Shown here: positions 44,305-64,000 of the stretch, piece after piece
How the letters are laid out: every line of letters starts with the position of its first letter
Numbering within the stretch: the stretch's first letter is position 1
DNA from: an uncultured Lachnospiraceae bacterium
GTDB taxonomy: Bacteria > Bacillota > Clostridia > Lachnospirales > Lachnospiraceae
Assembly (NCBI GenBank): GCA_910577015.1
Contig: CAJTKU010000001.1
Location: forward strand, 185,298-249,297
Length of the DNA: 64,000 bases
Direction of reading: 5' to 3'
Made by a program: the position numbers and the translations under genes
The notes under the pieces: generated by a model
The model's input: only the letters and a program-made list of their open reading frames with translations
The model's database searches: none
Told to the model about the DNA's origin: nothing

Positions 44305-44343
44305 TATCTTGATTTCTCATTTTGTTGCTTTCGGTTCAACTAA

Positions 44344-44415
44344 TTAAAATTTTCCTGCTTTTGCCGCTTCCTCAATCGAGACGGTAACATACGCTTTTTC
44401 AGCACTTATCGCCAT
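44344..44415 (-). CDS. Possible 23-aa micro-ORF
   Basis: ATG 44415 behind ggaggt gives MAISAEKAYVTVSIEEAAKAGKF. The only support is the SD. Confidence 0.2.
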   Translation of the reverse strand: MAISAEKAYVTVSIEEAAKAGKF

Positions 44416-44493
44416 TTTTGTTACCTCCACGTTGCCTATTCAGCAATTTTTCTCACTTGCGAGCACATCCCACGACATTTTTAGCGCAAATAC

Positions 44494-44733
44494 TCAGCTC
44501 TCTGTGCCATCATACACATAGCCGGTTTCTTCCCAAAACTTCATCGGCGATATGTAATAATCATATTGTGAGCTGCCCTCTTTCTTGAAAGCCACTCCGA
44601 ATTTCAGAAATCCAAGTATGATGCCCTGGCGGATAAACTGCTGATCCTTTTTCATTACTCTGGCCGCTACAGCTACCGGAACATTTTCGCCGGTAAACTC
44701 TGGCACTTTCAAATATACCTTGTTCCTATCCAT
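44494..44733 (-). CDS. Small DNA-binding protein, excisionase/HTH_17-like
   Basis: 79 aa. VAARVMKKDQQFIRQGIILGFLKFGVAFKKEGSSQYDYYISPMKFWEETGY resembles short phage Xis-like HTH proteins (by eye). Confidence 0.45.
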   Translation of the reverse strand: MDRNKVYLKVPEFTGENVPVAVAARVMKKDQQFIRQGIILGFLKFGVAFKKEGSSQYDYYISPMKFWEETGYVYDGTES

Positions 44734-44977
44734 TTGTCAACGCCTTCCTTTCCTTTGCCAAATTTAATGCCTGCAGGATGTCGTTTGCTTTCTTCTCCCC
44801 GATCCCTTTTACCTGGAGGATTGCCTGCGTAATCTCTTCATCGGATAATATGGGAATCTCCTTTTTTCCCGCCTCATACCCCCTCTTATACAAGTCCTCA
44901 CAGAACGCACTCATTTGTCCGTGGTCCATCTTCCTGACATCCTTGTATGTTTTCCTGTTCAATTCGTATGTCCTCAC
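44726..44977 (-). CDS. Hypothetical protein with helix-hairpin-helix motif
   Basis: GTG start at 44977, 8 nt after aaggagg. Contains VKGIGEKKANDIL. Confidence 0.5.
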   Translation of the reverse strand: MRTYELNRKTYKDVRKMDHGQMSAFCEDLYKRGYEAGKKEIPILSDEEITQAILQVKGIGEKKANDILQALNLAKERKALTNG

Positions 44978-44994
44978 TCCATCGCCTCCTTAAT

Positions 44995-45777
44995 TCATAT
45001 ATCAAACAAACTTAACTGCATATTTTCGGATGCAAACCTTTTATCCAGGTCATGAATTGTGCTGCCGTCTGACCGATACGGAAAAGGCATCCTATTTTGC
45101 CAATCCTTGAAACTGCTCCATAGCTCCGGCAGATGCTTTCGGATATTTCTCAGCTCCTTCAGATTCTTTTGCTGGCAATGCTGGCAACTTACCCTATCCA
45201 ATATGTCATATAGCCGGATTCCGAATTGTTTCCACTGCACTCCATGCTGGTAGCAATACTCCAGACAGTCCGCCTCCGTCATGCCCCACTTTATCAGTGG
45301 GTATGACTTCGCATAATTCTTATGGGGCTTTATGTCTATTCTCTGTGCCTCGTCAGCTGCTATGCCTACATACTCAATCACAAACCGCTCCAATGACTGA
45401 TAATATCCATTCAACAGCTGCCTTTTTATGGCCGTTCCCCAGCGCTGCTTTCCGCACCATCCATACCCTTTACATCCATTTTGCTTTTCATGCTCAAATG
45501 CCATGAACTCAAACATGCCCAGCTCAACTCCTGTGGCCGCTCTGTATTCCTGGTACTCTTCTGTTTCTGGTATGCTGAGGACCGTAAACTTGATTCTCTC
45601 TTTCAAGCATATACTTGCCGCAAACAGAAGAGTATCGTATGTTGCCTGGTATTCATCGCCCAAATCTACAGTTACCACTTCATCCAGCCTCACACCTTCC
45701 TCTAAAATTTTTAAGAACAGCGCCAGGCTGTCCTTGCCGCCGCTTAGCGACAATGTGTAATATGAAAGATTCTTCAT
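44995..45777 (-). CDS. PAPS reductase-like PP-loop ATPase (phage type)
   Basis: 260 aa with N-terminal PP-loop SLSGGKDS and a Cys-rich C-terminal part (CQHCQQK). Confidence 0.8.
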   Translation of the reverse strand: MKNLSYYTLSLSGGKDSLALFLKILEEGVRLDEVVTVDLGDEYQATYDTLLFAASICLKERIKFTVLSIPETEEYQEYRAATGVELGMFEFMAFEHEKQNGCKGYGWCGKQRWGTAIKRQLLNGYYQSLERFVIEYVGIAADEAQRIDIKPHKNYAKSYPLIKWGMTEADCLEYCYQHGVQWKQFGIRLYDILDRVSCQHCQQKNLKELRNIRKHLPELWSSFKDWQNRMPFPYRSDGSTIHDLDKRFASENMQLSLFDI

Positions 45778-45952
45778 AACACCACGAACAAATCACTCTG
45801 TATCGTGGATAACGCCCTATGGCCTCCCATGCTACGCGGATATATGTCTTTCTCCATGTGGATCCATCCATAATCCCTCACGCTGCTAGTAGGGCATTTT
45901 TCGCCAGCAGTTATACACCCTCTGCATCAACCCGGTTTACCGGGACTCGTTA

Positions 45953-46312
45953 TTACTCCTTTCTCTCTCCTTTGCTTAAATTAACCCATATCACAGCTCC
46001 CTGCGGATGCCGATATGGGATAGGCTCCGTAAATCTTATGGCATCCTTTAGATACCAGATATGCGGCTCTTCGTATGGCAGGCTGTCAAATTCGCCAGGG
46101 ATATGATGATATTTCCGGAACATATCGAAATCTTCTCTCAGCAGTAGCGAGGACCCGACTATCTCAACGCTCCCCTGGATCATCCCGGTACCGGAAAATA
46201 TCACCCCTACCCTGCCGCGCACCCGCGTTCCTATGCCACGAATTTCCCACGGCTTAGAGCCATCCAGTATGAGGTTGCCCCAATGTTCCTTGACAATAAA
46301 AGCTCTATCCAT
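45953..46312 (-). CDS. ASCH domain protein
   Basis: ATG 46312 behind aggagg. MDRAFIVKEHWGNLILDGSKPWEIRG is the typical ASCH N-terminus. Confidence 0.7.
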   Translation of the reverse strand: MDRAFIVKEHWGNLILDGSKPWEIRGIGTRVRGRVGVIFSGTGMIQGSVEIVGSSLLLREDFDMFRKYHHIPGEFDSLPYEEPHIWYLKDAIRFTEPIPYRHPQGAVIWVNLSKGERKE

Positions 46313-46322
46313 CTGCGACCTC

Positions 46323-46586
46323 CTATTCTGCCGGAAATTCAAAAACCTTGTTTTGCCGGTATGTTCCTGGTCTGATGGCTTGTGCGGCAATATCAAAGAA
46401 ATCTACCGTATAACACTCGTCTTTGTGCGCCTCGCAAAAATCTTTCAGCACGGTCAGGCACCTTTCTTTTGTCGGGTACTCTGCAATTTCTTCAAGGCAT
46501 CCGTCTGAAATACAGATTGTATGCCGTATCGTCTCGCCTTTTCCTTTGCGATCCACGCTTTCCTTATTTTGACTTACTATCAGCAT
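46323..46586 (-). CDS. Hypothetical protein (87 aa)
   Basis: ATG 46586 behind aaggagg. It overlaps the 3-prime end of the ParB-like gene by 23 nt. Confidence 0.5.
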   Translation of the reverse strand: MLIVSQNKESVDRKGKGETIRHTICISDGCLEEIAEYPTKERCLTVLKDFCEAHKDECYTVDFFDIAAQAIRPGTYRQNKVFEFPAE

Positions 46587-47940
46587 GGCTTTCCTCCTTA
46601 AATAAATCATGAGTACCCTCTGCCAGCTTGTAATATTCCTCCTTGCTATACGAAAAGCCGAACAAAGACAAGATTTCATCGAACTGCATAACCAGCTCTC
46701 CGGCTCCCTTGCGGTAAGTCGCATTCCATTCTGCAATGTCCTTGTCTGCGACTCCATTGGCGGCGTAAATCATCAGCTTATAGAGAAGTCCGATTGCATC
46801 ACGCTGCTTTTCATATGCGGCTTTTTCCTCGTCTGACTTATCATACAAAGAGGTTTCTCCGGTAATGAATCTCAGCATCACCTGCTCGCTCATCCATGAA
46901 CCGCACCCAACCATGACGCCAAACAGGCGCTCCATCACCGCCTCCAGCTTTTCGCTCTCAGGCTTAAACTTCTGCTCGATAGCCAGCTTTATGAAATCGG
47001 CCCGCTCTGCAGACATTTCTTTCTGCATGGCTTTAATCTGCCGCTTTCTCTTGTCCTGGGCCTTCTGTTTCATCTCATACTCGGACAGCTCACGCTTTTC
47101 TTTCCCTTTCTTCTTGATGATTGCGAACGTCCTCCACCAGACCACATAGAACAGCTCTTCCTTCGCCGCCTGCGTCTTGCACCCCAACTTATCCTTGACC
47201 TCCTTATCCAGCTCGAACTCCTTAACCTTTTCCCACTTTCCGCCGTACTGCTCATTCTCGGCGCCTTCCGGAGCAGGCTTGATTCCCTCGGCCTTACAGA
47301 GTTTGATATAGGCTTTCTCATGCTCTTTGCGTTTGATTTCCTCGTATGCACTTCTCGCTCTCTGCGCCAGGTTATTGGAGCTGGTGGACTCCTTCAGGAT
47401 TTTATCCCTAGTCTTTACATCCGGGATCTTCTCCAGCTCGTACAAATCCTTTAATGACAGCTGGAACCCCTCGTCTTTCTCCTTCTCCTGTAGCACTTTC
47501 CGGTTGAGCTTTGCGATGTTCAGCCGGTGCTTTACCGTTGTTCTGGAGAAACCGGTCTTTTCTGCGATACTTTCCTCCGTCTCTCCCAGGTCGAGCATCA
47601 TCTGGAAACCGTTCGCCTGTTCCCAAATCGTCAGATCATTACGCTGCATATTCTCTTCCAGCATAATTGACATCTGCTCCCTCGGAGTCAGATTCTCGGC
47701 AATCTGGCAAGGAAACTCTGCTACCCCTACCTGGATACCTGCCGCATATCTCCTGTGTCCGATGATTGTCATGTACTCTCCCGGCTCGCCCTCCACCGGA
47801 ATCACCGTCAAATTCTGCAGGATTCCATTCTTCTTAATGGACTCCGCCAGCTCCGTCAAATCTCCCAGGTCTTTCCTGGGATTCTCCGGATGCGGTCTGA
47901 TATGCTCAGCCGCAATGTAAATAATCTGTTTTTCCGCCAT
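46564..47940 (-). CDS. ParB/Srx-like nuclease domain protein
   Basis: 458 aa. IRPHPENPRKDLGDLTELAESIKKNGILQNLTV...IIGHRRYAAG is the ParB N-terminal domain. The long helical C-terminal part is not recognised. Confidence 0.8.
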   Translation of the reverse strand: MAEKQIIYIAAEHIRPHPENPRKDLGDLTELAESIKKNGILQNLTVIPVEGEPGEYMTIIGHRRYAAGIQVGVAEFPCQIAENLTPREQMSIMLEENMQRNDLTIWEQANGFQMMLDLGETEESIAEKTGFSRTTVKHRLNIAKLNRKVLQEKEKDEGFQLSLKDLYELEKIPDVKTRDKILKESTSSNNLAQRARSAYEEIKRKEHEKAYIKLCKAEGIKPAPEGAENEQYGGKWEKVKEFELDKEVKDKLGCKTQAAKEELFYVVWWRTFAIIKKKGKEKRELSEYEMKQKAQDKRKRQIKAMQKEMSAERADFIKLAIEQKFKPESEKLEAVMERLFGVMVGCGSWMSEQVMLRFITGETSLYDKSDEEKAAYEKQRDAIGLLYKLMIYAANGVADKDIAEWNATYRKGAGELVMQFDEILSLFGFSYSKEEYYKLAEGTHDLFKEESHADSKSK

Positions 47941-48004
47941 TCGTTTATCCTCCTATAATCCATTTTGATGGAACTGGCGGCACAAGGCCGCCGATTCCAT
48001 GATG

Positions 48005-48859
48005 TTATGATTTCTTGATGATGAAGCAGACGGGCACCCGATCCGCAATGGACGCGTGCAAGTTGGAGGCAAGGCCGTAGCCGGAGACAAGGCACGCAAG
48101 CGGAGAAAAGCCAGACCTCACGGACGCCAGCCACCAGATGCAGGTATCTTCGCCCTCCGCTGATCCCCTCATTCTGTTTCTGCGGTCCTTGTAGTATTCC
48201 ATCTGTTCATACATCCCTTCATCGCCATAGCAATCGTCCTCGTCAAATACCTCCGATGCTGAAGGCAGGAACAGATATGTATTGAAAGATACCGTTTCCC
48301 CATTCCGCAGCGTCTTTCTCTCTGCCAGAGAGATCACCTTCCTCAAATCCTCCGGTAACCGCTCAAACAGCCCCTTATTCAGATACTTGTGGATATCCGA
48401 ACCAGGATAGCCCAGCTGAGTACCGCCATTTTTATTCCATTCCACTTCCTCTCCTACGCAATCCCGGCTCTCGAACCGCACATACTCGTCCGTCACATCC
48501 GTAACCACCAGCGTAAAGCCCTGGCCGTCCACCGTGCTACCCTTCTTGTAATCCCCGACCTTGAACTCAACGCCAGACTTGATTGCACTGGCGATTTCTT
48601 CCCAGGTTCCCTGCAGTTCTCCACAGGTTCTCACGATTCCCGGCTTTCCGGCATTTTCCGCATCCTTTTCCTGCCGCACCCTTGCGTACCAGGCCATGTC
48701 GTTTTTCATCCTCTGCATCAGCTCGGCTTTTGCCTTGATGTTGGCCTCTTCCACTTCCTTGATGTGCTGGTAGAAAGCCTCACGCTCTCTCTGGATCGTC
48801 TCCGAACTGCCCTTTACCTTCAGCTCTTCATTCCCTGCTCTTACTCTCAATTCCTCCAT
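48005..48859 (-). CDS. Hypothetical protein (284 aa), coiled-coil N-terminus
   Basis: A strong SD precedes it. The C-terminal CIWWLASVRSG...RVPVCFII resembles a module common in Bacillota phage/accessory proteins; not assigned. Confidence 0.5.
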   Translation of the reverse strand: MEELRVRAGNEELKVKGSSETIQREREAFYQHIKEVEEANIKAKAELMQRMKNDMAWYARVRQEKDAENAGKPGIVRTCGELQGTWEEIASAIKSGVEFKVGDYKKGSTVDGQGFTLVVTDVTDEYVRFESRDCVGEEVEWNKNGGTQLGYPGSDIHKYLNKGLFERLPEDLRKVISLAERKTLRNGETVSFNTYLFLPSASEVFDEDDCYGDEGMYEQMEYYKDRRNRMRGSAEGEDTCIWWLASVRSGFSPLACLVSGYGLASNLHASIADRVPVCFIIKKS

Positions 48860-48933
48860 CGTTTTTCTCCTTTCGCTATTGCGTTTCTATTTATCCAAAA
48901 ATCTCGAAATTGCGAGATAGTCGGTCAAAAAAA

Positions 48934-49659
48934 TTACCTGCTGATGAACAGCTTTTCCGTAACCTGCACCGGATTCTTGTCTGCCTTTATCGTCCTTGAT
49001 ACCGGTTTACTCCAGATGCACTTAAAATCATCCGGTGCCGCGCTGCTGCTTATCAGCACGATATTCTCCGCACTCATTGCTCTTACCCACTGCCAAAATT
49101 CTCCATAGTCAAAACCCTTGCTTATTCCATACTCCTTTGTACCCTCATATGGAGGATCGCAATAGATAACCGCCCCTTGCGTGTTGAGCAACTTATAATC
49201 ACTACAGATAAACTCGACACCCTTTAAGTCCTCAGCCTGTTTTATCAGATTCCTCAATGCCTCTTCGTAGTAATTCCTTACCCCATTTTCTGTATGCACT
49301 ATTCCGGCATATCCCCCATCAAAGAACCGGCCATTATAGCTTGCCAGATACCCGATAGCTCCCACATACCATTTTTCATATATGCCGGTCTGCTCATAAA
49401 AGCACTTTCTCACTTCTGAGTAATGCTCTTTCGTAACAAATCCCGGCAGTTCTTCGAGCCTGTCAAGATTTCTGAGCAGCTCTATCAAGTGTTCCTGCTT
49501 ATCATGTGCAAACCTTTTCCTTGCATGGATTTTGTCTATGATATTGCATCCGCCACAGAATGGCTCTATGTACGCCCACGGTTGGTTATCATCTATATAT
49601 CTCTGGATGATAGGCACTATATGCCGGGCAACTTTACTTTTGCTACCCATGTACTTCAA
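48934..49659 (-). CDS. DNA adenine methyltransferase (Dam/D12 class)
   Basis: TTG start at 49659, 7 nt after ggaggg. KYMGSKSKVARHIVPI (AdoMet motif region) and the catalytic DPPY (VIYCDPPYEG). Confidence 0.88.
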   Translation of the reverse strand: MKYMGSKSKVARHIVPIIQRYIDDNQPWAYIEPFCGGCNIIDKIHARKRFAHDKQEHLIELLRNLDRLEELPGFVTKEHYSEVRKCFYEQTGIYEKWYVGAIGYLASYNGRFFDGGYAGIVHTENGVRNYYEEALRNLIKQAEDLKGVEFICSDYKLLNTQGAVIYCDPPYEGTKEYGISKGFDYGEFWQWVRAMSAENIVLISSSAAPDDFKCIWSKPVSRTIKADKNPVQVTEKLFISR

Positions 49660-49671
49660 TGCAAATCCCTC

Positions 49672-50439
49672 CTATGCCGTTGCCAGCTGTTTATTCAGCA
49701 GAGCATCGAACATTTTGAAACCGTAGATGAATCCCTGCATCTCTGCCTCGATTGCCACGCCGTAAAGGGCATCTTCCAGCCTATTGCTCTCCTGGGCTTT
49801 CAGCTGAGTGGACTTCATTACCTCGTAGAACTTCTGGTATTTCTCCGTCAGCTCCGTTATCTCCCGGCCCTCTACTGCCGGTCCAGTGATAAAACGGTTG
49901 AACATATCACAATATTCCTCGTACTCACTTCTCGGCTTTCCCTCCAGAAGAAACTCTCCGCCAGCCCCGACGCTCACAGCGGCTTTCTTTTCTGGATGAA
50001 ACCGCTCCTGGATCGCCTGGTCGAATCTCCTTATACCGTCTGCAACGTACTTGATTCCGCTGCCGTACTTTGCAACCATTTCCCGGTATTCCATGCAGGC
50101 GCTTTCCGTCATTTCATACATCGGATACGATTTCCTGTTTTTGTGGGAGCAGACAAACGAAGTGAGGAAATACCCCCTCTCTTTTCCGTCCGTTTCCTCC
50201 GAACACAGGAGCTTTGCTATCTGCTTGAATACTGCAGAATGTGTCCTCCCCAGCGCATCCGCCACTTCACGGCTTGTCATAGTTGCGCCCGGCTTTTCCT
50301 GCGGCTTTGCCTCTTTTACTTCCGGAGCTTTCAAAACAATCTCCACAATATCGCTCGCAGACACATTTCCGGCAATTCCTTTGATGCAGGCAGCGATTTT
50401 TTCCGCATCGTCATGCCCGATATTCAGTCTTATGCTCAT
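49672..50439 (-). CDS. Rha-like phage regulatory protein
   Basis: 255 aa. MTSREVADALGRTHSAVFKQIAKLL resembles the Phage_pRha HTH region. Confidence 0.5.
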   Translation of the reverse strand: MSIRLNIGHDDAEKIAACIKGIAGNVSASDIVEIVLKAPEVKEAKPQEKPGATMTSREVADALGRTHSAVFKQIAKLLCSEETDGKERGYFLTSFVCSHKNRKSYPMYEMTESACMEYREMVAKYGSGIKYVADGIRRFDQAIQERFHPEKKAAVSVGAGGEFLLEGKPRSEYEEYCDMFNRFITGPAVEGREITELTEKYQKFYEVMKSTQLKAQESNRLEDALYGVAIEAEMQGFIYGFKMFDALLNKQLATA

Positions 50440-50693
50440 GCCGCACTCTCCTTTCTGAGTAATTCCAGCAACGGATGCCAGGGTCTTGCCCCACGCAGGC
50501 GGCTGATGATCTTTTTCAAATCGACCTCCTGCTTATCTACCCACCGATAATCCTGGTACTTCCCTGCGCTTCTCTCGTTTACCGGCCTGTCGTGAAACCC
50601 GTCCGTGATCTTGAACCGTTCCGGCCTCTTTTCATCCTCGTTAAACGCCACATACTGCTTATTCCCGTGAATGCAGTAGCCAACAATCTTCAT
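50436..50693 (-). CDS. Hypothetical protein (85 aa)
   Basis: ATGA overlaps at both ends. Confidence 0.5.
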   Translation of the reverse strand: MKIVGYCIHGNKQYVAFNEDEKRPERFKITDGFHDRPVNERSAGKYQDYRWVDKQEVDLKKIISRLRGARPWHPLLELLRKESAA

Positions 50694-57368: not shown

Positions 57369-57378
57369 AGCCTGCCTC

Positions 57379-57669
57379 CTACAAATAAGATTTTCCGTAT
57401 CTCTTCCGGAACTCTTCCCTGGTGCCGATCCGGCCCTCGAAAATTGCCTGTCCCAGCATCTTTGACAACTTCTCTGCCATCGGGTTATCGTGTACCCGGT
57501 TCAGCTTGTCTCCCATGTTATGACAGTTATTGCAGATGGGAACTTTCAAGCCGTCTTTCTCGCTCAGCTCCCTGCCCGCCGTTCCGAAAATAAGATGATG
57601 TTCCCCCTCTGCCTGTCGGCCACAAAAGAAACATATCCCTTTGTACTCTGTAACAATACTTTTGCTCAT
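57379..57669 (-). CDS. Small HNH-type zinc-finger nuclease-like protein (96 aa)
   Basis: CFFCG...EGEHHLIFG...PICNNCHN matches the Cys-X2-Cys / HH / Cys-X2-Cys-His pattern of minimal HNH proteins. Confidence 0.55.
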   Translation of the reverse strand: MSKSIVTEYKGICFFCGRQAEGEHHLIFGTAGRELSEKDGLKVPICNNCHNMGDKLNRVHDNPMAEKLSKMLGQAIFEGRIGTREEFRKRYGKSYL

Positions 57670-57678
57670 GTCTGCCTC

Positions 57679-57741
57679 CTATTTCTTTTTCTTCTCCATC
57701 CCCATGAATACCAAAAATGCCAACACCACTATTGCCGCCAT
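57679..57741 (-). CDS. 20-aa hydrophobic micro-ORF
   Basis: ATG 57741 behind aggagg gives MAAIVVLAFLVFMGMEKKKK. Confidence 0.3.
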   Translation of the reverse strand: MAAIVVLAFLVFMGMEKKKK

Positions 57742-57750
57742 ATTTGCCTC

Positions 57751-58176
57751 CTATCCGTAAATCACATCACCGAACAGCGCATACTGGATGATACAGTCTG
57801 CGGCTCCTGCATCAATATTGCAGGGGTCTATGTTCAGTTTCCCGGTATAAACTCCGATGCGGTTTGTTTCCCGGTCAATACAGCCCGTATTTCCGGCTGC
57901 AATGTACTTTTTCAGCCCTTCAATGAATTTCTCTTTGCTGAGGGTATACGACTTGTTTTCCTCTGCATCATGCAGAACCAATTCTCCTCCTCTGCTGATC
58001 TGGTCGCTCGCATACTCTCCGAGATAGTCTCCCTTGGCCTCGGCTTGTCTGCACCAGTAATTGATTCCCCCCTCCAGGGCCGAAACCATGATGTCGTCAA
58101 TGTCCTCATTGCGGACTCTTACATCAAGCGCACAATTCAAAACCATGCAATCCACAACCTCCAACTTTTCTTCCAT
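57751..58176 (-). CDS. Hypothetical protein (141 aa)
   Basis: TGATG overlap with the upstream gene. Confidence 0.5.
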   Translation of the reverse strand: MEEKLEVVDCMVLNCALDVRVRNEDIDDIMVSALEGGINYWCRQAEAKGDYLGEYASDQISRGGELVLHDAEENKSYTLSKEKFIEGLKKYIAAGNTGCIDRETNRIGVYTGKLNIDPCNIDAGAADCIIQYALFGDVIYG

Positions 58177-58574
58177 CAGTCATTACCTCCTTCATATTCC
58201 GCCCCGCAATATGGGCACTTCGTTTCTCCATAGCAGTTGAACATCTTCCCGCACTCTTTGCAGGTATCAAGCTCTCCGTTCCTGAGCCAATCTTCCAGCA
58301 GACTGCTTACATGCTGCCAGTCAACCGCCTCGTAGACCTCTTCTGCTAAATCCGTCTGTCCGTTGCACTCCTGCAGGATGCTGTTTCTGGTGTACTTCGT
58401 ATCCGACAGCTCCGGTATGTAGCAAACCCTGTCCGGGTGTTTCGTATCATAGAAAGCCTCGTCGCTCTTGAAGATCATCCCCTGCCCGTAAAACTCCCGC
58501 TGGATTACTTCCCCCTTTCCGTTCTCGTCCGGCGGAGTATAGCGTCCCACCAGCAGATACTTTCCATCAGTCAT
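58176..58574 (-). CDS. Hypothetical protein with C-terminal zinc ribbon (132 aa)
   Basis: CKECGKMFNCYGETKCPYCG at the C-terminus. Confidence 0.5.
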   Translation of the reverse strand: MTDGKYLLVGRYTPPDENGKGEVIQREFYGQGMIFKSDEAFYDTKHPDRVCYIPELSDTKYTRNSILQECNGQTDLAEEVYEAVDWQHVSSLLEDWLRNGELDTCKECGKMFNCYGETKCPYCGAEYEGGND

Positions 58575-58962
58575 CTTCGTCCTCTACCTCCATTTCCCGC
58601 AATGTCTGCGACAATTTCAGAATCATAGCGTCAATTTCCTCCGCATCCTTTACAAGCTCCCGTATAGACGGTACCCCGGAAATGCCATTCCTTCTTGCCT
58701 CGACCCACATTTCAACATGCTCGTCAATATCAAAATCCTCATAGTAGGATTCCAGGCTATCCCGGAAACTACTGCACTGATCCTCAGCATCAAAATCAAT
58801 TATCATGCTGAAATCTTCTCCTGCCGGGGAGTGCTGGCCCATTTCTACATACGTTCTGTTATTCTGGCTCTCTTCGATCCATGCACTCGACCACCAGCCA
58901 AGTTCCTCTGCTTTCGCCAGCAGAATTTTCATTCCTGCAGACAAGCCTTTATATTCTTCCAT
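58567..58962 (-). CDS. Hypothetical acidic protein (131 aa)
   Basis: SD ggagggg upstream. 8-nt overlap with the downstream gene. Confidence 0.5.
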   Translation of the reverse strand: MEEYKGLSAGMKILLAKAEELGWWSSAWIEESQNNRTYVEMGQHSPAGEDFSMIIDFDAEDQCSSFRDSLESYYEDFDIDEHVEMWVEARRNGISGVPSIRELVKDAEEIDAMILKLSQTLREMEVEDEDD

Positions 58963-58965
58963 CCA

Positions 58966-59202
58966 TCACCCCTCCACGTCTGCGTAGTACGCATCAAAGG
59001 CAATCCCAGCCTCCACCATTTTCGCCTCCAGGAAGTTTCCGTAGCACCAGCCTTCGCCCTCTTCCCAAAAAGCATCCCAGGCTTTCTTCAATACCTCGCT
59101 TGCCCTCTCCTTATCTTCCGGGCTTACCAGAAATATGCAATCCATCCACTCATTCGTGCTGGACTGTACTCTGATGCAGCCGCCTTTCATTTCTTCAACC
59201 AT
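58966..59202 (-). CDS. Hypothetical protein (78 aa)
   Basis: SD ggaggt upstream. Confidence 0.45.
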   Translation of the reverse strand: MVEEMKGGCIRVQSSTNEWMDCIFLVSPEDKERASEVLKKAWDAFWEEGEGWCYGNFLEAKMVEAGIAFDAYYADVEG

Positions 59203-59214
59203 AACCGCTACCTC

Positions 59215-59601
59215 CTAAATGTAATAACAGCTGAAATTCCAATGATGCCCGAACTCATAGTAAAGCCCATACTTCTTGAAAATCGCATCAAACTTATTTC
59301 TGATTCCCTGAAACATACCGTAGTAGAGCATTTCGCATACCATGCCCTCGAAACTCATGCTGAGGATATGATCTGGATTGACATATTCAAAATATGTCCT
59401 GGGGTCCTCATTCTCCCGTACTACCAAGTGTTCTCGGTCATTGTAATAGAATTTTCCTGTCTCCTTATCGTAGGTGGTAAAGCACTTACCGTTAAAGTAA
59501 ATATCCACATCAACCCACATTTCATGCTCCAGCAGAAACTCTCTGATTTCGATTGCCAGATTTTCAATTCTTTCTGATGTCAGTTTTGCCGCTTCATTCA
59601 T
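59215..59601 (-). CDS. Hypothetical protein (128 aa)
   Basis: ATG 59601 (MNEAAKLTSERIENL) overlaps the stop of the upstream 59-aa ORF (ATGA). Confidence 0.45.
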   Translation of the reverse strand: MNEAAKLTSERIENLAIEIREFLLEHEMWVDVDIYFNGKCFTTYDKETGKFYYNDREHLVVRENEDPRTYFEYVNPDHILSMSFEGMVCEMLYYGMFQGIRNKFDAIFKKYGLYYEFGHHWNFSCYYI

Positions 59602-59777
59602 TCTGCTGTCACCTCCCTTACCATTCCCCTGTTTCTCTGACGGGCCTTCTTTTTCAAATTTCTTTTCCATCTGCGAATCGTCACAGCCTTTGTGTGATTT
59701 CTGGAGAAACAGTAATCATCCAGGACATACCGCCCATGCTGCTCGCGCTCTCCGTATGCGTGCATTTTTCTCGCCAT
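59598..59777 (-). CDS. 59-aa highly basic protein (below ORF-track cutoff)
   Basis: MARKMHAYGEREQHGRYVLDDYCFSRNHTKAVTIRRWKRNLKKKARQRNRGMVREVTAE. It fills the gap exactly and is coupled by ATGA to the next gene. Confidence 0.4.
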   Translation of the reverse strand: MARKMHAYGEREQHGRYVLDDYCFSRNHTKAVTIRRWKRNLKKKARQRNRGMVREVTAE

Positions 59778-59779
59778 CT

Positions 59780-59935
59780 CTACTGATTCGCCTCCTTTCT
59801 TCTCTCCTTTACCAGAACCAGAAGTGTTGCCCGGTCCATTCCCAGGCTTTCAAGCTCCCTCTCAATGCGTTTCGTAACCGCTTTGTTTCCAGCTGTTACC
59901 GCCACTTCATACTGCCTGATGTATTCCTCCAGCAT
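59780..59935 (-). CDS. 51-aa helical protein (below ORF-track cutoff)
   Basis: ATG 59935 behind ggaggg gives MLEEYIRQYEVAVTAGNKAVTKRIERELESLGMDRATLLVLVKERRKEANQ. Confidence 0.4.
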   Translation of the reverse strand: MLEEYIRQYEVAVTAGNKAVTKRIERELESLGMDRATLLVLVKERRKEANQ

Positions 59936-59941
59936 ATTTCT

Positions 59942-60430
59942 TCATCCCTCCAATCCTACATACTCCAGAATCTTTCGGCGGGCAAACTTCCCGATTTCTT
60001 CCAGATAATCTTTCTGGTTCCAGTCGGTACCCACCTGCGCCGCCTCAAAATCATCCGCCCACTGCACAAACAGCTGTTTCCAAGTGATGCTGTCAACGCC
60101 GCTCAGCCGCTTGTGTTCCTCCAACATACCAACATAAACAAGGGTAATTTCCACCAGGTTCTCAGATGCTTTGTTGTAAATCATTTTCTCCTGCCGCTGA
60201 TCCTGCAACTGGATTTCCTCTTTGAACTCATAACACATATTGACAGGCCCGCCGTTGACTTTACCCATTTTCCAGTCGGAACCATGAATGCTGAAGGCGA
60301 AATAATCATCCCCGTCTATCGTGAGACTCGCCATCGCCTCGTATCCGTTTCTTTTGACAGCCTCCGCAATTCCGTTAATCAGAGGCAAGACCTCCTGGCA
60401 AAGACCTCTGAATTTTTCTTTGTTATTCAT
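59942..60430 (-). CDS. Hypothetical protein (162 aa)
   Basis: Fits the coupled array. Confidence 0.5.
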   Translation of the reverse strand: MNNKEKFRGLCQEVLPLINGIAEAVKRNGYEAMASLTIDGDDYFAFSIHGSDWKMGKVNGGPVNMCYEFKEEIQLQDQRQEKMIYNKASENLVEITLVYVGMLEEHKRLSGVDSITWKQLFVQWADDFEAAQVGTDWNQKDYLEEIGKFARRKILEYVGLEG

Positions 60431-60593
60431 CCTTGACCTCCTTAACTGCGGTGACTACGCCGCCAACCAAATGCCATGCTTTAATGTACTGGTTTCCTTT
60501 GCTCCTTGCCTCCGACTCGTTCCTAGCCTCGAATATTGCAGGAGAGTTGCATCCAGATTCATCGTCATAAATAAACACCTGGTATTTCTTCAT
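60423..60593 (-). CDS. 56-aa protein (below ORF-track cutoff)
   Basis: ATG 60593 overlaps the upstream stop (ATGA). MKKYQVFIYDDESGCNSPAIFEARNESEARSKGNQYIKAWHLVGGVVTAVKEVKDE. Confidence 0.4.
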   Translation of the reverse strand: MKKYQVFIYDDESGCNSPAIFEARNESEARSKGNQYIKAWHLVGGVVTAVKEVKDE

Positions 60594-60976
60594 GCGTCCT
60601 TTGCCTCCTTTACAAAATTCTCTGCATCTTCCTGGCTCTCGAACCAGTCATGATAGATGTCTTTCCGGGCCGTACTCCTTGAATCATTCTCCGGCTTGCT
60701 GACCGCCTCAACCGTGCTGGTAATGTTTGCTACCACCTTGCCGTTATCATATACAGTCGTTGTCACACACCAGAATATTTTCATGCCTCCCAAAGTAAGC
60801 TCGTAGGCATCCGCCTCTTCTTTCGTCAGCGACTCACTGTACTCAATGAATCCCCATGCCTCCCGCCCAATTTCCTCACAGAAAGTCTTTGTGTCGAAAT
60901 TCTCAATCTTCTCAACTGCCGCTTTCTTAGGAAAGCCGCCCGGCATAACCGGGCGCTGTGTGCTGTAATATCTCAT
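60590..60976 (-). CDS. Hypothetical protein (128 aa)
   Basis: The N-terminal MRYYSTQRPVMPGGFPK resembles a module seen in large polyvalent proteins of Bacillota mobile elements; not assigned. Confidence 0.5.
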   Translation of the reverse strand: MRYYSTQRPVMPGGFPKKAAVEKIENFDTKTFCEEIGREAWGFIEYSESLTKEEADAYELTLGGMKIFWCVTTTVYDNGKVVANITSTVEAVSKPENDSRSTARKDIYHDWFESQEDAENFVKEAKDA

Positions 60977-60978
60977 GC

Positions 60979-61611
60979 CTACTCTTCCTCCTGGATCTCT
61001 TTCTTTTTCCTCCTGGATGTCGTTTTCTTTTCTCCGGTGGATGCCTTTCTGGTTCTCTTAGACTTTTCCGGCTCTTTATCCTCGCTTACAGGCTCAGGCA
61101 GCGTTTCTTCTGCCTTTTCCGTAGGAATTACCGCCTCTGCCTCTTCCGTCTGGATTTGAGCCGCCTGCTCCGGCAATCTCTCCTGCAGTTTGTACCGCTT
61201 ACGGATGGAGGCAATCATAAGTTCTACTTCCGCATTTACCAGCTCCTTATCCTCGTCCGTCAAACCTGCAGACAAATCCTCTCTCTCCTGCCAATACCCT
61301 GCGTTATCCAGAAACGCATCAATAATTCTCTTCGCCTTGTCATGCTTTACATCCCATTTCATCATAGTATTTTTCCTCCTTGTGCTTTCCGCATATTCTT
61401 TTACTATTGCCTTGCCCTGCTCTATCGCCTCCAGAATATCAACGCCGATCTGCTGGTAGAAATCCGGATGAACGATACACTCATAGGCTCTCGCCATCTT
61501 ACTTCTCTGCTCCTGCGTCACTCCGATATGAAAATCCTTCGCTATCTGCAACGCTTTCTTCCAGTCCTGCTCCTGAACCGCCTCTCTTACGATGTCCGAC
61601 TTCTTAATCAT
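60979..61611 (-). CDS. Hypothetical protein (210 aa) with E/K-rich tail
   Basis: ATGA overlap with the upstream 51-aa ORF. Confidence 0.5.
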   Translation of the reverse strand: MIKKSDIVREAVQEQDWKKALQIAKDFHIGVTQEQRSKMARAYECIVHPDFYQQIGVDILEAIEQGKAIVKEYAESTRRKNTMMKWDVKHDKAKRIIDAFLDNAGYWQEREDLSAGLTDEDKELVNAEVELMIASIRKRYKLQERLPEQAAQIQTEEAEAVIPTEKAEETLPEPVSEDKEPEKSKRTRKASTGEKKTTSRRKKKEIQEEE

Positions 61612-61763
61612 TCATCATCACCAGCCCCCGGCACTTCCAGCAAATCTTTCTCAATCCAGAACTTCTCGCCCAGGAAATCTACCTTCACTGCGTTTCTGCC
61701 GGTCTGGACCACCGTTGCCAGTGGTCCGATGTCCGGAATCTTTACCTGCGTTCCTACACTCAT
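61608..61763 (-). CDS. 51-aa protein (below ORF-track cutoff)
   Basis: The codon-by-codon read gives MSVGTQVKIPDIGPLATVVQTGRNAVKVDFLGEKFWIEKDLLEVPGAGDDE. ATGA overlaps at both ends. Confidence 0.45.
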   Translation of the reverse strand: MSVGTQVKIPDIGPLATVVQTGRNAVKVDFLGEKFWIEKDLLEVPGAGDDE

Positions 61764-61972
61764 GCCGCTACCTCCCGAATCTCTTTCAGTTTGTCAATGC
61801 TGGTATAGATACAGCTGCCTGTTGTGAAAACCAATCCATCCCAGCGAACATACTTCACAGTTTCGGTATTCATTTCTCCTGTGGCTCCGTCTTTCCACTC
61901 AACCTCGACTGTTTTTCCGTCTGCCAACATTTTCTCTATCTTCTCTACGTCTGCCATTCTAAATGTTTTCAT
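61760..61972 (-). CDS. Hypothetical protein (70 aa)
   Basis: SD aggagg upstream. Confidence 0.5.
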   Translation of the reverse strand: MKTFRMADVEKIEKMLADGKTVEVEWKDGATGEMNTETVKYVRWDGLVFTTGSCIYTSIDKLKEIREVAA

Positions 61973-61981
61973 CCCTTGCCT

Positions 61982-62134
61982 CCTACTGATCTTTCTTCTC
62001 TGCCGCTATAACTGCCAGCACAATCACTCCGTTTACCAGAACCGCCGCCAGATTCCCGGCTCTCATTCCGTCATGCAGGCCCACCATGAAATTGATGAAC
62101 AACAGCGCCTGCAGAAACCTCCGAATTTTTTTCA
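61982..62134 (-). CDS. 50-aa membrane peptide (below ORF-track cutoff)
   Basis: ATG 62134 behind aaggagg gives MKKIRRFLQALLFINFMVGLHDGMRAGNLAAVLVNGVIVLAVIAAEKKDQ. Confidence 0.45.
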
Positions 62135-62225
62135 TTGCCTTTCAGCCTCCTTTATGGTAGACTTATCAGCTGAGGGGGCTTTGTTTCTGCCCCGCTCAAC
62201 CGATAAGGAACTGTTCGCTTAGTTG

Positions 62226-62381
62226 CTAATCAATCCAACTCAGCACCGCCGTGACGATTGCCAAAAGCATTGTCACTATGGTTGCTATGATAGCGGTCAA
62301 ACTTTCATAGATTTGGAATCTGATCTGGCGCTCTTCGAGCAGTTCTTTTTCTTTCTGCCTTTTCTTCTTTCCTTTACCCAA
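62226..62381 (-). CDS. 51-aa tail-anchored membrane peptide, first gene after promoter copy 2
   Basis: TTG 62381 is 5 nt after aaggagga. It gives (M)GKGKKKRQKEKELLEERQIRFQIYESLTAIIATIVTMLLAIVTAVLSWID. Confidence 0.45.
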   Translation of the reverse strand: MGKGKKKRQKEKELLEERQIRFQIYESLTAIIATIVTMLLAIVTAVLSWID

Positions 62382-62413
62382 ATGGCGTCCTCCTTTCCGT
62401 TGGATTTAATCAA

Positions 62414-62499
62414 GCATTTGTTTTGTTTGATTATGTATATATTATACTTCGCAACTGCGAGTTTGTCAATAGTTTTACTTCTCAAAATGCAAATTTTTT
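62414..62499. repeat. 86-bp promoter-operator cassette, copy 2
   Basis: See copy 1. The offset between copies is 8418 bp. Confidence 0.9.
62441..62469 (-). promoter_or_regulatory. Consensus sigmaA promoter TTGACA-N17-TATAAT with dyad in spacer (copy 2)
   Basis: Identical to copy 1. It is the most upstream early promoter visible. Confidence 0.75.
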
Positions 62500-62637
62500 A
62501 CCCATCCAGCTCTCAACATTGAATTTATGGAGGATATGCTTATTGAAGGCTCAAATCTGGTGCATTTCATTTCTGCTCATTTTCTGTTCTTTATGGGAAA
62601 AGTCCGAGAAACCGCATAAATACGCTATCGCTTGTAA

Positions 62638-62715
62638 GATTTCTTACATGATTTCTCGTTAGATTTCTGGTAGGATTCTTTACTAGAGATAAGAGATAAA
62701 GAGATTAGAGATATA
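62638..62715. repeat. Phased short direct repeats (4 x GATTTCT/GATTCTT at exact 12-bp spacing, then 4 x GAGATWA) in an AT-rich tract
   Basis: The first repeat set starts at 62638, 62650, 62662 and 62674. The GAGATAA-type units start at 62686, 62693, 62701 and 62708. Confidence 0.8.
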
Positions 62716-62787
62716 TAATATATGGCCAGCTTTTGAAATCTGACCGCCTTTATTTGCTCTCATTTGAGTATTTTATTCACATATTCG

Positions 62788-62805
62788 TGTGGATAATGTG
62801 GATAA
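62788..62805. promoter_or_regulatory. Two abutting perfect DnaA boxes (TGTGGATAA TGTGGATAA = complement of TTATCCACA)
   Basis: Read directly at 62788-62796 and 62797-62805. Confidence 0.7.
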
Positions 62806-62823
62806 TCCTTGATTCAAAACGCA

Positions 62824-62852
62824 TTGACTTTTTCGCCAATTTGGGATATTAT
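62824..62852 (+). promoter_or_regulatory. Plus-strand promoter TTGACT-N17-TATTAT (candidate antitoxin RNA promoter)
   Basis: Hexamers and spacer were read directly. Transcription from it would run antisense into the 3-prime end of the small toxin-like ORF. Confidence 0.5.
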
Positions 62853-62858
62853 CTAAAT

Positions 62859-62985
62859 AGAAAAGGGCATCTGCTGGTAACAGACACCCTTTAGGCGCTA
62901 CCGATAGACGGTTGGCCCGATATAGTCAGCTTAGAAACAGCCGCTCAGTTTATCAGACCGGGGCGGCTATTTCTGTGTCTTTCCA
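62859..62985 (+). ncRNA. Candidate antisense RNA (type I antitoxin-like)
   Basis: Inferred only from the promoter at 62824-62852 and a possible hairpin/T-rich stop (agccgc...gcggctatttctgtgtcttt). The ends are not determined. Confidence 0.3.
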
Positions 62986-63068
62986 TGATGAAATCCTATC
63001 GTATATCCAATCCCAAAGCAGGTACCGCATAATGCCAGCACCGCTATCAGACCTTCCATAGTCAGCAT
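62967..63068 (-). CDS. 33-aa hydrophobic peptide, type I toxin-like
   Basis: ATG 63068 behind aaggaggg gives MLTMEGLIAVLALCGTCFGIGYTIGFHHGKTQK, a single TM helix with a basic tail. Confidence 0.5.
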   Translation of the reverse strand: MLTMEGLIAVLALCGTCFGIGYTIGFHHGKTQK

Positions 63069-63179
63069 AACACACGCCCTCCTTTCCTTTCGATTCCCTT
63101 ACAGGTTTCTATGTAATCAGAGGGTCACAGTCCCTCCGTAGAGGGCCAACCGCCTACCATCCTGGTAGCACCCACAAAA

Positions 63180-63208
63180 ATGCTACCACAGAAAACGGTT
63201 AATTTCAA
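63180..63208 (-). promoter_or_regulatory. Putative promoter of the toxin-like mRNA (TTGAAA-N17-TAGCAT, TGn-extended)
   Basis: The minus strand reads ttgaaa ttaaccgttttctgtgg tagcat. It predicts a ~100-nt 5-prime UTR. Confidence 0.4.
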
Positions 63209-63392
63209 CTGTTTTCCAGCATATATGCCTAAAAACTCGTACTCGGCTCGATGCCGGCCTTTTCTCTTTAGGCATAGGATAGGTACTAAAAACGTCTATC
63301 GTTTCTCAGGCACATTTCGTCAAATTACCCGGTCAAATTTTGGTTATTTTGTATATTGATTTTTTCTGCTGATTTGCTCCGCATTTACAACT

Positions 63393-63424
63393 AAAAAACG
63401 GCCCCGGCCATTACGACCAGGGCC
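63393..63424 (-). terminator. Rho-independent terminator ending the late/lysis transcription unit
   Basis: The minus strand reads ggccctgg-tcgtaatgg-ccggggcc followed by gtttttt, 8 nt after the stop at 63432. Confidence 0.75.
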
Positions 63425-63431
63425 ATTCCTC

Positions 63432-63605
63432 TTATTCCTCGGAATTGATAAAATCCTTACAGTCCAGTTTCCGGTATGCCTTTTCAAATGTCTCCTTCGG
63501 ACTCCAGGAAACATAACCATCCGGATATTTCACCCGGTACCCAGGACGTCCGTTCTTCTCCTGCGGCTCCGCTTTCACGATTTTTACGCCAATATAATTC
63601 TCCAT
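63432..63605 (-). CDS. Small phage protein (57 aa)
   Basis: ATG 63605 behind ggaggg gives MENYIGVKIVKAEPQEKNGRPGYRVKYPDGYVSWSPKETFEKAYRKL. A similar Y-x-SWSPK-x-FE-x-AYR motif recurs in small phage proteins (recollection). Confidence 0.55.
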   Translation of the reverse strand: MENYIGVKIVKAEPQEKNGRPGYRVKYPDGYVSWSPKETFEKAYRKLDCKDFINSEE

Positions 63606-63618
63606 GATTCCCTCCTGT

Positions 63619-64000
63619 CTACTGCGGAATGGAAAGAGTCCAGCCGACAACGATATAATTCGCTGTGATCTTCGGATATTTTCCCTTATTTGCTGCCACG
63701 ATTTTTGCAACGGTGGTTCCGTTTTTGTTTGCGATTGCAGAGAGCGTGTCACCGCTCACGACTTTATGCGTCCTCGTGCCAGATGATCCGCCGCTGGCTG
63801 ATGAACCAATATCCCCGGCATCCACCCAGCCGTAAACGGTGCTGGTGCTGTCGGTATGTACCAGATGGTACGGATGCCTGGCTCCCGCAGAAACAGCAGT
63901 AATTTTTGCCTTGCCAGGCTTGCAGGCTTTGGGAGACGTATCATTGGCGCTGGAATAGTGCTTCGTTCCGGTAAACGATACCACATCACCAATCTGGCAG
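63619..64000 (-). CDS. Cell-wall-binding C-terminus of a phage lysin (SH3-like segment + LysM); 5-prime part outside window
   Basis: The frame is open to position 64000 (..CQIGDMVSFTGTKHY..). The C-terminal LysM is HKVVSGDTLSAIANKNGTTVAKIVAANKGKYPKITANYIVVGWTLSIP. Confidence 0.7.
   Translation of the reverse strand, partial: CQIGDVVSFTGTKHYSSANDTSPKACKPGKAKITAVSAGARHPYHLVHTDSTSTVYGWVDAGDIGSSASGGSSGTRTHKVVSGDTLSAIANKNGTTVAKIVAANKGKYPKITANYIVVGWTLSIPQ

Follow-up and report, generated by a model that had tools for sequence, protein, structure and literature searches.

The window considered here is a stretch of 64,000 nucleotides (nt) of DNA from an uncultured Lachnospiraceae bacterium (NCBI GenBank assembly GCA_910577015.1, contig CAJTKU010000001.1, positions 185,298 to 249,297). 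It is part of a 474-kb contig, and coordinates above 64000 are window coordinates extrapolated along that contig. Positions 44494 to 62381 of the minus strand are occupied by a run of small genes, referred to here as the block. The block lies inside a complete temperate phage of about 67.2 kb, which has a contractile tail and is integrated by a tyrosine integrase in the 3′ end of a host gene of the GGGtGRT family. Judging from its signals, the block is probably a transcription unit apart from the late operon of this phage, starting at a promoter of the sigma-A type (P2) and boosted midway by a second one (P3). We consider it fairly likely that the block is the integrase-distal early arm of the phage, consisting of two repressor-gated operons that serve establishment, counter-defence and excision. 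Its genes are numbered from g01, at the end next to the left attachment (att) site, attL, up to g43, at the P2 end. The signals that delimit the block are:

44494 to 62381, minus strand: the block, as two tandem operons running from 62381 to 54081 and from 53978 to 44494
62441 to 62469, minus strand: promoter P2, TTGACA-17-TATAAT, consensus at 12/12 positions, 60 bases upstream of the first block gene (start at 62381)
54023 to 54051, minus strand: promoter P3, TTGACA-17-TATAAT, consensus at 12/12 positions, with the spacer palindrome CTCGCAGTTGCGA; mid-block, between g21 and g20
63397 to 63425, minus strand: intrinsic-terminator-like hairpin and T run closing the late (lysis) operon (63412 to 63397 in the scan)
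63432 to 63605, minus strand: g45, 57 amino acids (aa), behind an AGGAGG Shine–Dalgarno sequence, with a ratio of non-synonymous to synonymous substitution rates (dN/dS) of 0.03–0.07; last gene of the late operon

On the minus strand, the endolysin gene is followed by g45, the hairpin with its T run, about 930 bases without a conserved protein gene, P2, and then the block. A promoter scan of 19.8 kb returned 24 promoter-like sites, where shuffled sequence gave a mean of 25, and the total is therefore meaningless; exactly two sites reached 12/12, namely P2 and P3, and these alone stand out. Both lie within near-identical cassettes of about 75 nt, in which a 26-mer is identical, and the cro promoter (108763, beside cI) matches this 26-mer at 24 of its 26 positions. 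The 3.2-Mb genome holds no further copies of the 26-mer at up to five mismatches. In these promoters, the spacer between the two hexamers contains an inverted repeat, CTCGCA-GT-TGCGA (core CGCA-NN-TGCG), and more TGCGAG half-sites are present in the cro leader. A weaker fourth site, at 97919–97944 on the plus strand, consists of the perfect palindrome CTCGCATATGCGAG followed by TATAAT; it sits upstream of a plus-strand open reading frame (ORF) of 125 aa within an otherwise minus-strand early region, and may be a further regulated promoter.

The promoter cassettes and the genes around them recur in related prophages. When IMG/VR was scanned for the promoter core, six loci turned up in four proviruses. 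Two of the four have two copies 8.1 kb apart, and the DNA of these proviruses is collinear with the block, at 66–94% identity in patches. In the 111-kb provirus record G041, a third promoter copy lies at the far end, next to a cI homologue. A scan with the DUF3560 protein (g15), using one genome per species, found 11 loci in Lachnospiraceae labelled Hungatella, Acetatifactor, Blautia and others: the block gene order is kept in all 11, the cassette lies between g21 and g20 in seven, and an endolysin homologue is found upstream in the three loci that extend that far. One further genome, G063, has three promoter copies with the same spacing as here. The 64-kb contig L043 also has three, and in it g01, an attP-like segment of about 440 bp (17110–17554), int, cI, the third promoter and cro follow one another in a row, with host DNA absent between g01 and int. 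This junction looks like an excised or circularly permuted form of the phage; the orientation of the attP-like segment is the opposite of that predicted from attL and attR of the present prophage. The promoter copies examined all have the core CGCA-NN-TGCG except the cro-promoter copy of G041 (TACG in the right half), and in a Blautia prophage both block promoters share one variant palindrome, TACGCAAGTGCGAG. Because a promoter of the cro type is shared and kept in relatives, a single regulator would be expected to act on the cro promoter and on the block, and the block would thus be an early unit.

The same layout fits MT835491, an uncultured human-gut phage with a terminase 73% identical to the present one and a g15 homologue 36 kb downstream of the terminase. 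Public runs from 13 studies contain DNA near-identical to the block, and most of these runs are labelled as mouse gut metagenome; a megablast search of 19.7 kb against 50,697 records of cultured or deposited phages gave no near-identical DNA. When 40 relatives were searched with the block DNA, matches were limited to a toxin-like stretch of 330 nt and a few short pieces, so the block lies outside the core genome of the genus. The provirus fragment G044 has an integrase, cI and cro 100% identical to those of this prophage, but the genes between its cro and recT, over about 12 kb, are different ones; none of 45 block proteins was found in its first 20 kb, a pattern which suggests strong mosaicism within one immunity type.

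The element that contains the block is bounded by two exact copies of a 16-bp direct repeat, and the distance between them gives its size. Ordinary chromosomal genes occupy window positions 1–44279 (a GyrB-family topoisomerase subunit, DegV, RecG, a fatty-acid kinase, RuvAB, ilv genes, MetH and Lgt), and chromosomal genes start again at 111508, with the GGGtGRT-family gene and a topoisomerase. The flanks of the two att cores are alike, not identical, as expected if the phage brings a substitute end for the gene that it interrupts. In two congeneric genomes (G047 and G048), no more than 0.65–1.2 kb separates the GGGtGRT gene end from the Zn-ribbon and Lgt genes; since the flanking host genes are near-adjacent there, the 67.2 kb is an insertion, with the block wholly inside it. 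The parts of the element outside the block are:

44362 to 44377, no strand: attL core, TGCCGCTTCCTCAATC, 16-bp exact direct repeat
63619 to 65154, minus strand: endolysin, 511 aa (ELLD 3.9e-44, Phage_lysozyme2 2.4e-27, LysM 3e-12); its 3′ end (63619–64000) is in the window
65167 to 65526, minus strand: holin, beyond the window
66674 to 67861, minus strand: reverse transcriptase (RVT_1 2.9e-10)
68845 to 69702, minus strand: DUF6273 protein of the tail region, first target of a diversity-generating retroelement (DGR)
between the DUF6273 gene and the tape measure, minus strand: tail fibre, Mu gp48-like proteins and baseplate J
75650 to 80323, minus strand: tape measure, 1557 aa
81607 to 83016, minus strand: sheath (8.4e-96), with a tail tube gene, also minus strand
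86332 to 87360, minus strand: major head protein (1e-79), with a protease also present
92113 to 93561, minus strand: terminase, with a Mu-type portal, also minus strand
between the terminase and cro, minus strand: RusA, DnaC-like loader, replisome organiser, PD-(D/E)XK nuclease and RecT
108156 to 108599, minus strand: cro-type helix-turn-helix (HTH) gene (HTH_3)
108795 to 109178, plus strand: cI (Phage_CI_repr 3.6e-12), with three small ORFs next to it
110150 to 111280, plus strand: tyrosine integrase, 376 aa (Phage_integrase 1.9e-11)
111526 to 111541, no strand: second att core, TGCCGCTTCCTCAATC, inside the 3′ end of the host GGGtGRT-family gene

The excision of this element and the formation of particles are hinted at only by the attP-type junction seen in the related contig L043. 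The early and middle region of the phage (94031–96318 and 98810–99556) holds a second ParB-like gene, a fusion of Dam-like and GNAT parts, and a second PAPS-reductase-like gene; with these second copies, the phage has two sets of genes of the DNA-modification type. Just outside attL, an ORF of 114 aa (43935–44279) resembles part of the neighbouring Zn-ribbon/DUF308 protein (43208–43822). As both match one gene in relatives, it may be a duplicated fragment at the integration site.

Within the block, 43 minus-strand ORFs are tiled from 62381 down to 44494 in the list of ORFs with translations, and about 40 of these are credible; those at 45680–45871 and 53664–53825, and the N-terminal half of 46323–46757, are doubtful, judging by composition and overlaps. 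The genes are closely packed: the 41 gene junctions comprise 15 overlaps, 17 gaps of 0–15 nt, three of 16–60 nt and six of more than 60 nt. These are real genes under purifying selection. Block orthologues occur in two related IMG/VR proviruses, of which the close one (G043) gives dN/dS values of 0.03–0.35 in all 22 aligned pairs. For the distant one (G041), the non-synonymous difference per site (pN) is below the synonymous one (pS) in all 27 pairs, with 11 ratios computable (0.03–0.30) and 16 pairs saturated at synonymous sites. Even the very short genes take part in this: seven credible genes are of 60 aa or less (38, 59, 51, 56, 51, 50 and 51 aa), and six of the seven have orthologues with dN/dS 0.03–0.30. 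Over most of the block, the GC (guanine–cytosine) skew is −0.23 to −0.33, the minus-strand coding being strongly skewed, and the long plus-strand ORFs in the block are shadows of this skewed coding, which mislead a greedy choice of the longest ORF. The encoded proteins are often acidic, with an isoelectric point (pI) below 5.5 in 19 of 40 and a net charge of −20 or lower in several. No tRNA genes were found by a tRNA scan of the 64-kb window, and an Rfam scan of 44000–64000 at E ≤ 1 matched nothing.

An earlier sequence-only reading of the window had proposed a prophage-like element with about 40 genes, all on the minus strand from 62381 to 44494. The ORF tiling agrees with this, every overlap that it listed is present (ATGA at 50436, 50690, 51828, 59598, 60590, 61608 and 61760; TAATG at 52754), and the at least seven genes that it placed under a 60-aa cutoff compare with seven credible ones, of 38–59 aa. 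Its prophage assignment is borne out beyond position 64000, where the remainder of the element, including the integrase, cI and cro, replication, packaging, head, tail and lysis genes and the att repeats, was recovered; the array is not one kept in synteny without phage structural genes, and the full element is not a non-phage island. Two details needed amendment. It saw no integrase, replication or structural gene in its stretch, which is correct for 44305–63600, but the last 382 bases are the 3′ end of the endolysin gene; and its starting point, 44305, lies 57 bases outside the attL core.

Eight of the 43 ORFs match Pfam families above the families' own cut-offs, six more have weaker matches, and 22 match PHROG families, mostly of unknown function; around half of the proteins are without an assignment. 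The products that were assigned or otherwise characterised are:

44494 to 44733, minus strand: g01, 79 aa, last gene of the block, its stop 116 bases from the attL core
44995 to 45777, minus strand: g03, PAPS-reductase-like, 260 aa (phrog_424 3.4e-33; PAPS_reduct 18.3 against a cut-off of 22.5 bits; PADLOC SspD 5.5e-9, weak)
45953 to 46312, minus strand: g05, ASCH, 119 aa (23.0 bits against a cut-off of 21.2)
46564 to 47940, minus strand: g07, ParB/Srx-type with ParB HTH, 458 aa (ParB_N 4.1e-12, HTH_ParB 6.3e-6, phrog_6218 2.9e-60)
48005 to 48859, minus strand: g08, DUF6273, 284 aa, second, remote DGR target
48934 to 49659, minus strand: g09, orphan Dam-type (D12) N6-adenine DNA methyltransferase (MethyltransfD12 1.4e-13; PADLOC MTase_II and orphan MTase models)
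49672 to 50439, minus strand: g10, Rha-family regulator or antirepressor-like (Phage_pRha 33.2 against a cut-off of 29.9 bits; phrog_518, phrog_63)
51828 to 52754, minus strand: g15, DUF3560, 308 aa (phrog_19458 6e-95)
54081 to 54431, minus strand: g21, HTH (Cro/C1-type) regulator, 116 aa (several weak HTH families, E 1e-7 to 1e-3), immediately upstream of P3
54428 to 55243, minus strand: g22, HNH endonuclease (HNH_3 4.1e-17; phrog_1891 2e-64)
55490 to 55861, minus strand: g24, DUF3846-like, 123 aa (DUF3846 20 against a cut-off of 27.5 bits; phrog_3777 3.2e-16)
minus strand: g28, zinc-finger protein like DUF968, just under the cut-off
57751 to 58176, minus strand: g29, 141 aa, of a large phage protein family
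60590 to 60976, minus strand: g38, DarA_C-domain protein, 128 aa (DarA_C 1.1e-21)
61983 to 62381, minus strand: g43 (51 aa) and g42 (50 aa), the two that come first downstream of P2, each with a single hydrophobic segment (dN/dS 0.05–0.30)

Neither a ParA partner for g07 nor an endonuclease partner for g09 is present in the block, and no relaxase or transfer genes were found in the element. PADLOC gave no defence system, just models for a methylase, a control protein and a homing endonuclease and the weak SspD-like match, and NCBIfam added nothing new beyond ParB, Dam and Rha. The families named by the sequence-only reading were in part upheld: ParB_N, D12, Phage_pRha, HNH_3, ASCH and DUF3560 pass in Pfam, while DUF3846 and PAPS_reduct fall below cut-off; DUF6273 and DarA_C, both above cut-off, were missing from it. 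Its broader proposal of an early or counter-defence region gains indirect support from the copies of the cro-type promoter and from domains that polyvalent proteins acting early in phages and conjugative elements are known to carry (PMC5512222), but a known anti-defence family was not identified in the libraries searched. The DGR target g08, the promoter repeats, the excisionase-like last gene and a toxin-like insert are all absent from that reading.

Relatives of g15 were found in 13 phage records and 415 plasmid records, 215 of the latter typed as conjugative. On the conjugative enterococcal plasmid pMG2200, a 1306-aa polyvalent protein with a YodL domain, encoded between topoisomerase and relaxase genes, has the g15 homologue as its C-terminal part. 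It has been proposed that polyvalent proteins, and their domains when found alone, work during the initial phase of invasion (PMC5512222). In the phages Maintenon and Toutatis, the g15 homologue lies in small-gene arrays ahead of the terminase; the placement after the lysis genes is thus a trait of the present lineage and not of the gene. The protein g29 has 1912 relatives and is conserved in all relatives of the block, and an acidic motif is invariant across its family. Its fold is predicted with a predicted local distance difference test (pLDDT) score of 93.2; it has no match in the PDB (best Foldseek E 0.13, best Z 3.5), and its 17 matches in BFVD at E ≤ 1e-3 are all uncharacterised proteins of many unrelated phages. 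Sequence searches of solved structures with g29, g12, g38 and g24 gave nothing below E 0.4, and g12 had no usable match in the ESM Atlas.

The last gene of the block, g01, belongs to a family of 247 proteins, none of which is named; the 120 matches listed are all at least 72% identical. Its AlphaFold (AF2) model (pLDDT 84.9) has a helix-turn-helix, a beta hairpin and a third helix, in the order helix-helix-strand-strand-helix, and is likely to be a winged helix with a fold like that of excisionases (Xis, or recombination directionality factors, RDF). Foldseek gave no match for it at E ≤ 0.001. Exhaustive structural alignment placed it nearest to BldC (Z 5.9), the excisionase RdfS (4.5), a DNA-binding protein of phage P2 (4.4) and Pukovnik Xis (4.2), with Tn916 Xis (Z 3.8) and the GIsul2 excisionase (Z 3.4) further down; five excisionase-titled entries are among its top 16 rows, at Z 3.2–4.5. 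As these scores are low, an excisionase role for g01 is a reasoned guess, drawn from position: after excision g01 and int would face each other across attP, just as they flank the attP-like segment of about 440 bp in L043. If an early operon under repressor control supplied the excisionase, excision would be tied to induction.

The gene g08 is a second target of the DGR of the phage, as a comparison of the repeats indicates. A DGR with two targets is not new in kind. Its parts are:

68136 to 68261: template repeat (TR), 126 bases, upstream of the reverse transcriptase
68859 to 68987: first variable repeat (VR1), at the 3′ end of the tail-region DUF6273 gene adjoining the TR
48023 to 48142: second variable repeat (VR2), at the 3′ end of g08, 20 kb from the TR

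VR1 differs from the TR at 13 of 29 template adenines and at one of 93 other positions, and VR2 at 21 of 29 template adenines and five of 93 other positions. Six natural VR2 copies, all from related prophages, vary at 28 of the 29 template-adenine positions and at 30 of 88 others. Both targets have DUF6273, which PMC11792537 describes as the DGR target domain that holds the variable region in Faecalibacterium prophages. The two target proteins of the present phage are 31% identical. By eye, g08 has a charged, coiled-coil-looking N-terminal extension and no obvious signal peptide. For the DGR accessory protein Avd, there is an ORF of 157 aa at the expected place (68304–68777), with no Pfam or PHROG match. 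Perhaps g08, whose family (that of orf43 of the Roseburia phage Shimadzu) would always be found beside a DNA methylase, is an apparently cytoplasmic protein of lectin fold and an adaptable binder of variable host targets, for example defence proteins, rather than a receptor-binding protein, and the block is a viral counterpart of a plasmid leading region, serving establishment and gated by the immunity repressor through duplicated cro promoters; this is a speculative idea to which we give little credence.

Outside the block proper, between the terminator of the late operon and P2, lies one more feature:

62809 to 63217, minus strand: insert of 410 bp, with a hydrophobic ORF of 33 aa at 62967–63068

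The insert holds this ORF behind AAGGAGGG, together with a conserved leader, a terminator, and a 3′ segment complementary to its 5′ end, and it looks like an undescribed module of the type I toxin–antitoxin kind, as far as its sequence tells. In the two closest proviruses (G041 and G043) it is absent, with 27–30 bases in its place. Its region 62857–63188 is the sole part of the 19.7 kb with DNA relatives in the genus, found in 10 of 24 genomes at 68–73% identity; G000 holds one copy of the insert, and related copies are present in L011–L014. RNAalifold, applied to five copies, gave 69 base pairs, of which 16 are changed on both sides; in the helix between the 5′ and 3′ ends, five of 26 pairs are so changed. 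This presumably resembles the closed mRNA form of type I toxins of the hok type. The insert has no Rfam match, and the 33-aa peptide has none in Pfam, NCBIfam or PADLOC. The gap in which the insert lies (62382–63618) was also considered as the att site of a second element and rejected: it shares no repeat of at least 11 bases with the right end, and just a 12-base word with the left flank.

Under the early-arm reading, P2, P3 and the cro promoter would all be kept off in the lysogen, whether by the repressor of the phage or by some other regulator of the cro promoter, and the three would fire together on infection or induction. The arm would then have three roles. One would be excision, by way of the excisionase-like g01, which lies beside attL and would lie beside int once the genome is circular. 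Another would be the protection or processing of phage DNA by DNA-modifying and DNA-handling proteins (the Dam-type methylase and the ParB/Srx-type, PAPS-reductase-like, ASCH and HNH proteins). The third would fall to the Rha and HTH regulators, together with some 25 small proteins, many of them very acidic, whose likeliest functions would be host takeover and counter-defence. The prophage boundaries, gene structure, DGR relation, promoter repeats, purifying selection and synteny in relatives are shown directly; that cI represses the block, that its timing is early, that g01 acts as an excisionase and that there is any counter-defence activity are inferences.

Several observations weigh against this. 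A promoter that matches the consensus perfectly might just as well be active all the time in the lysogen. Variants of the whole block are spanned, at 90–99% identity, by contigs of four RNA libraries (two studies), with strand, starts, level and timing unreadable; like assemblies in general, these contigs end at repeats, here those of the promoters. In a relative from Blautia, just two promoter copies are found at up to two mismatches, so the design with three copies is not universal. The Z-scores of g01 (at most 5.9) are within the range that the aligner calls common. The only anti-defence families found in Pfam, PHROG, PADLOC and NCBIfam, none of which is an anti-defence or anti-CRISPR catalogue, are the orphan D12 methylase and DarA_C. 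The site after the lysis genes and beside att is the usual place of lysogenic-conversion genes. Finally, the palindrome might be bound by Cro, or by g21, the HTH protein that the block itself encodes, by analogy with the anti-CRISPR-associated autorepressors treated in bioRxiv 10.1101/787200.

The position of the block raises the alternative that it is a lysogenic-conversion (moron) region, with promoters active in the lysogen and products that serve the host, by phage exclusion or modification of host DNA. Such a region would be expected to sit between lysis genes and att with strong promoters of its own, as the block does. Many exclusion proteins are small membrane-type proteins, and so are the first two products of the block; the RNA-library contigs (two studies) that span block variants would also fit, if weakly, as carry-over of DNA or induced cells are possible. 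We nevertheless think this unlikely, given that the promoters copy the lytic cro promoter down to the spacer palindrome, that the content is lytic or early in type (Rha, HNH, the ParB-type nuclease and the excisionase-like last gene), and that models of known defence matched only the methylase and homing endonuclease. Alternatively, the promoter copies may be mere recombination joints between mosaic modules, with no common control, the block being expressed independently or through transcription that reads on from the late operon. Segments replaced in related prophages do begin or end at the cassettes, assembled contigs break at them, and in G044, whose int, cI and cro are identical, the first 20 kb lack all 45 block proteins. 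Against this, the core CGCA-NN-TGCG is kept (with the one exception in the cro-promoter copy of G041) while its flanks diverge, both block copies have changed to the same variant in the Blautia relative, and a terminator-like hairpin stands between the late genes and the block; we regard this explanation as unlikely, slightly more so than the one just given. The block might also be a mobile element of its own beside the prophage, for example a satellite, the remains of a second prophage or part of a conjugative element. Several domains common to conjugative elements might suggest this, as might the gap of about 1.2 kb (62382–63618) that parts the block from the lysis genes and contains just one small gene plus the toxin-like insert. 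But no integrase, replication gene or att repeat lies between block and phage, one pair of att repeats encloses both, a target of the phage's own DGR is among the block genes, the block promoters are copies of one that belongs to the phage, and the block is linked to the same phage genes in relatives, including the contig of the excised type. This possibility is very remote.

Temperate phages of gut Lachnospiraceae are barely characterised. What was an anonymous run of small genes is now defined by exact prophage ends, two promoters, a candidate excisionase and a second DGR target that varies in nature. Its approximately 25 conserved, often very acidic small proteins are sensible first candidates for screens of counter-defence and host takeover. 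The triplicated promoter–operator cassette provides a simple marker for immunity groups in these phages, and may explain how whole sets of genes are swapped between them.

The closest parallel for g08 is in phage Shimadzu, which also has a second DGR target of the DUF6273 type in a non-structural region, directly after a DNA methyltransferase gene. This protein, orf43, is 44% identical to g08 over 69% of the length of g08, and mutation of both variable repeats has been demonstrated in Shimadzu virion DNA (bioRxiv 10.1101/575076). The two phages differ in layout: in Shimadzu the target is in an ordinary early region, between repressor and replication genes, and just three small genes separate endolysin and integrase, whereas here an arm of 18 kb follows the lysis genes. 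The Faecalibacterium prophages Lelie, CP11, Roos and Pioen likewise have a DUF6273 variable region and paired targets (PMC11792537), but belong to other hosts and other phage lineages.

In Listeria prophages, the acr-aca loci follow the lysin gene, near the end of the prophage. These loci differ from the block in comprising two to four genes, as opposed to about 40, and in being autoregulated by their own product. What they would share with the block, as read here, is the principle of a counter-defence operon with its own strong promoter and a palindromic operator bound by an HTH protein, as bioRxiv 10.1101/787200 sets out for these loci. No match between block proteins and known anti-CRISPR families was found in the general libraries searched, none of which is an anti-CRISPR catalogue. 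Leading regions of conjugative plasmids resemble the block as single-strand arrays of small genes with orphan methylases and ParB-type proteins that act on entry, according to PMC11541004 and PMC5512222. The likeness extends to polyvalent proteins, in that g15 is homologous to the C-terminal module of the 1306-aa YodL protein and g38 has DarA_C. Plasmid leading regions enter the recipient first, next to oriT, whereas the element here is a phage, with no oriT, relaxase or single-strand promoter, the block DNA is not known to be the first part to enter a cell, and its proteins are stand-alone and not fused.

As regards regulation, the early promoters of phage phiC31 are repeated and have conserved inverted repeats, although a literature search on them gave nothing usable. 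In cluster A mycobacteriophages, one immunity repressor acts at many sites across the genome, the stoperators, as PMC9283540 describes; here, there are three or four sites, each a whole promoter cassette with a symmetric predicted site, in place of asymmetric elongation blocks. The block can also be set beside the PL operon and b region of phage lambda. The lambda operon is a repressor-controlled early operon that ends at xis and int beside attP and carries non-essential accessory genes. It starts beside cI and runs towards att, whereas the arm described here starts after the lysis genes, points the same way as the late genes, has for its promoters two duplicates of the other one, that of cro, and has int on the opposite strand across attP. 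The block is probably an early accessory region of a temperate phage, known in kind, with an unusual placement and a triplicated promoter, and kept across an uncharacterised lineage of Lachnospiraceae phages.

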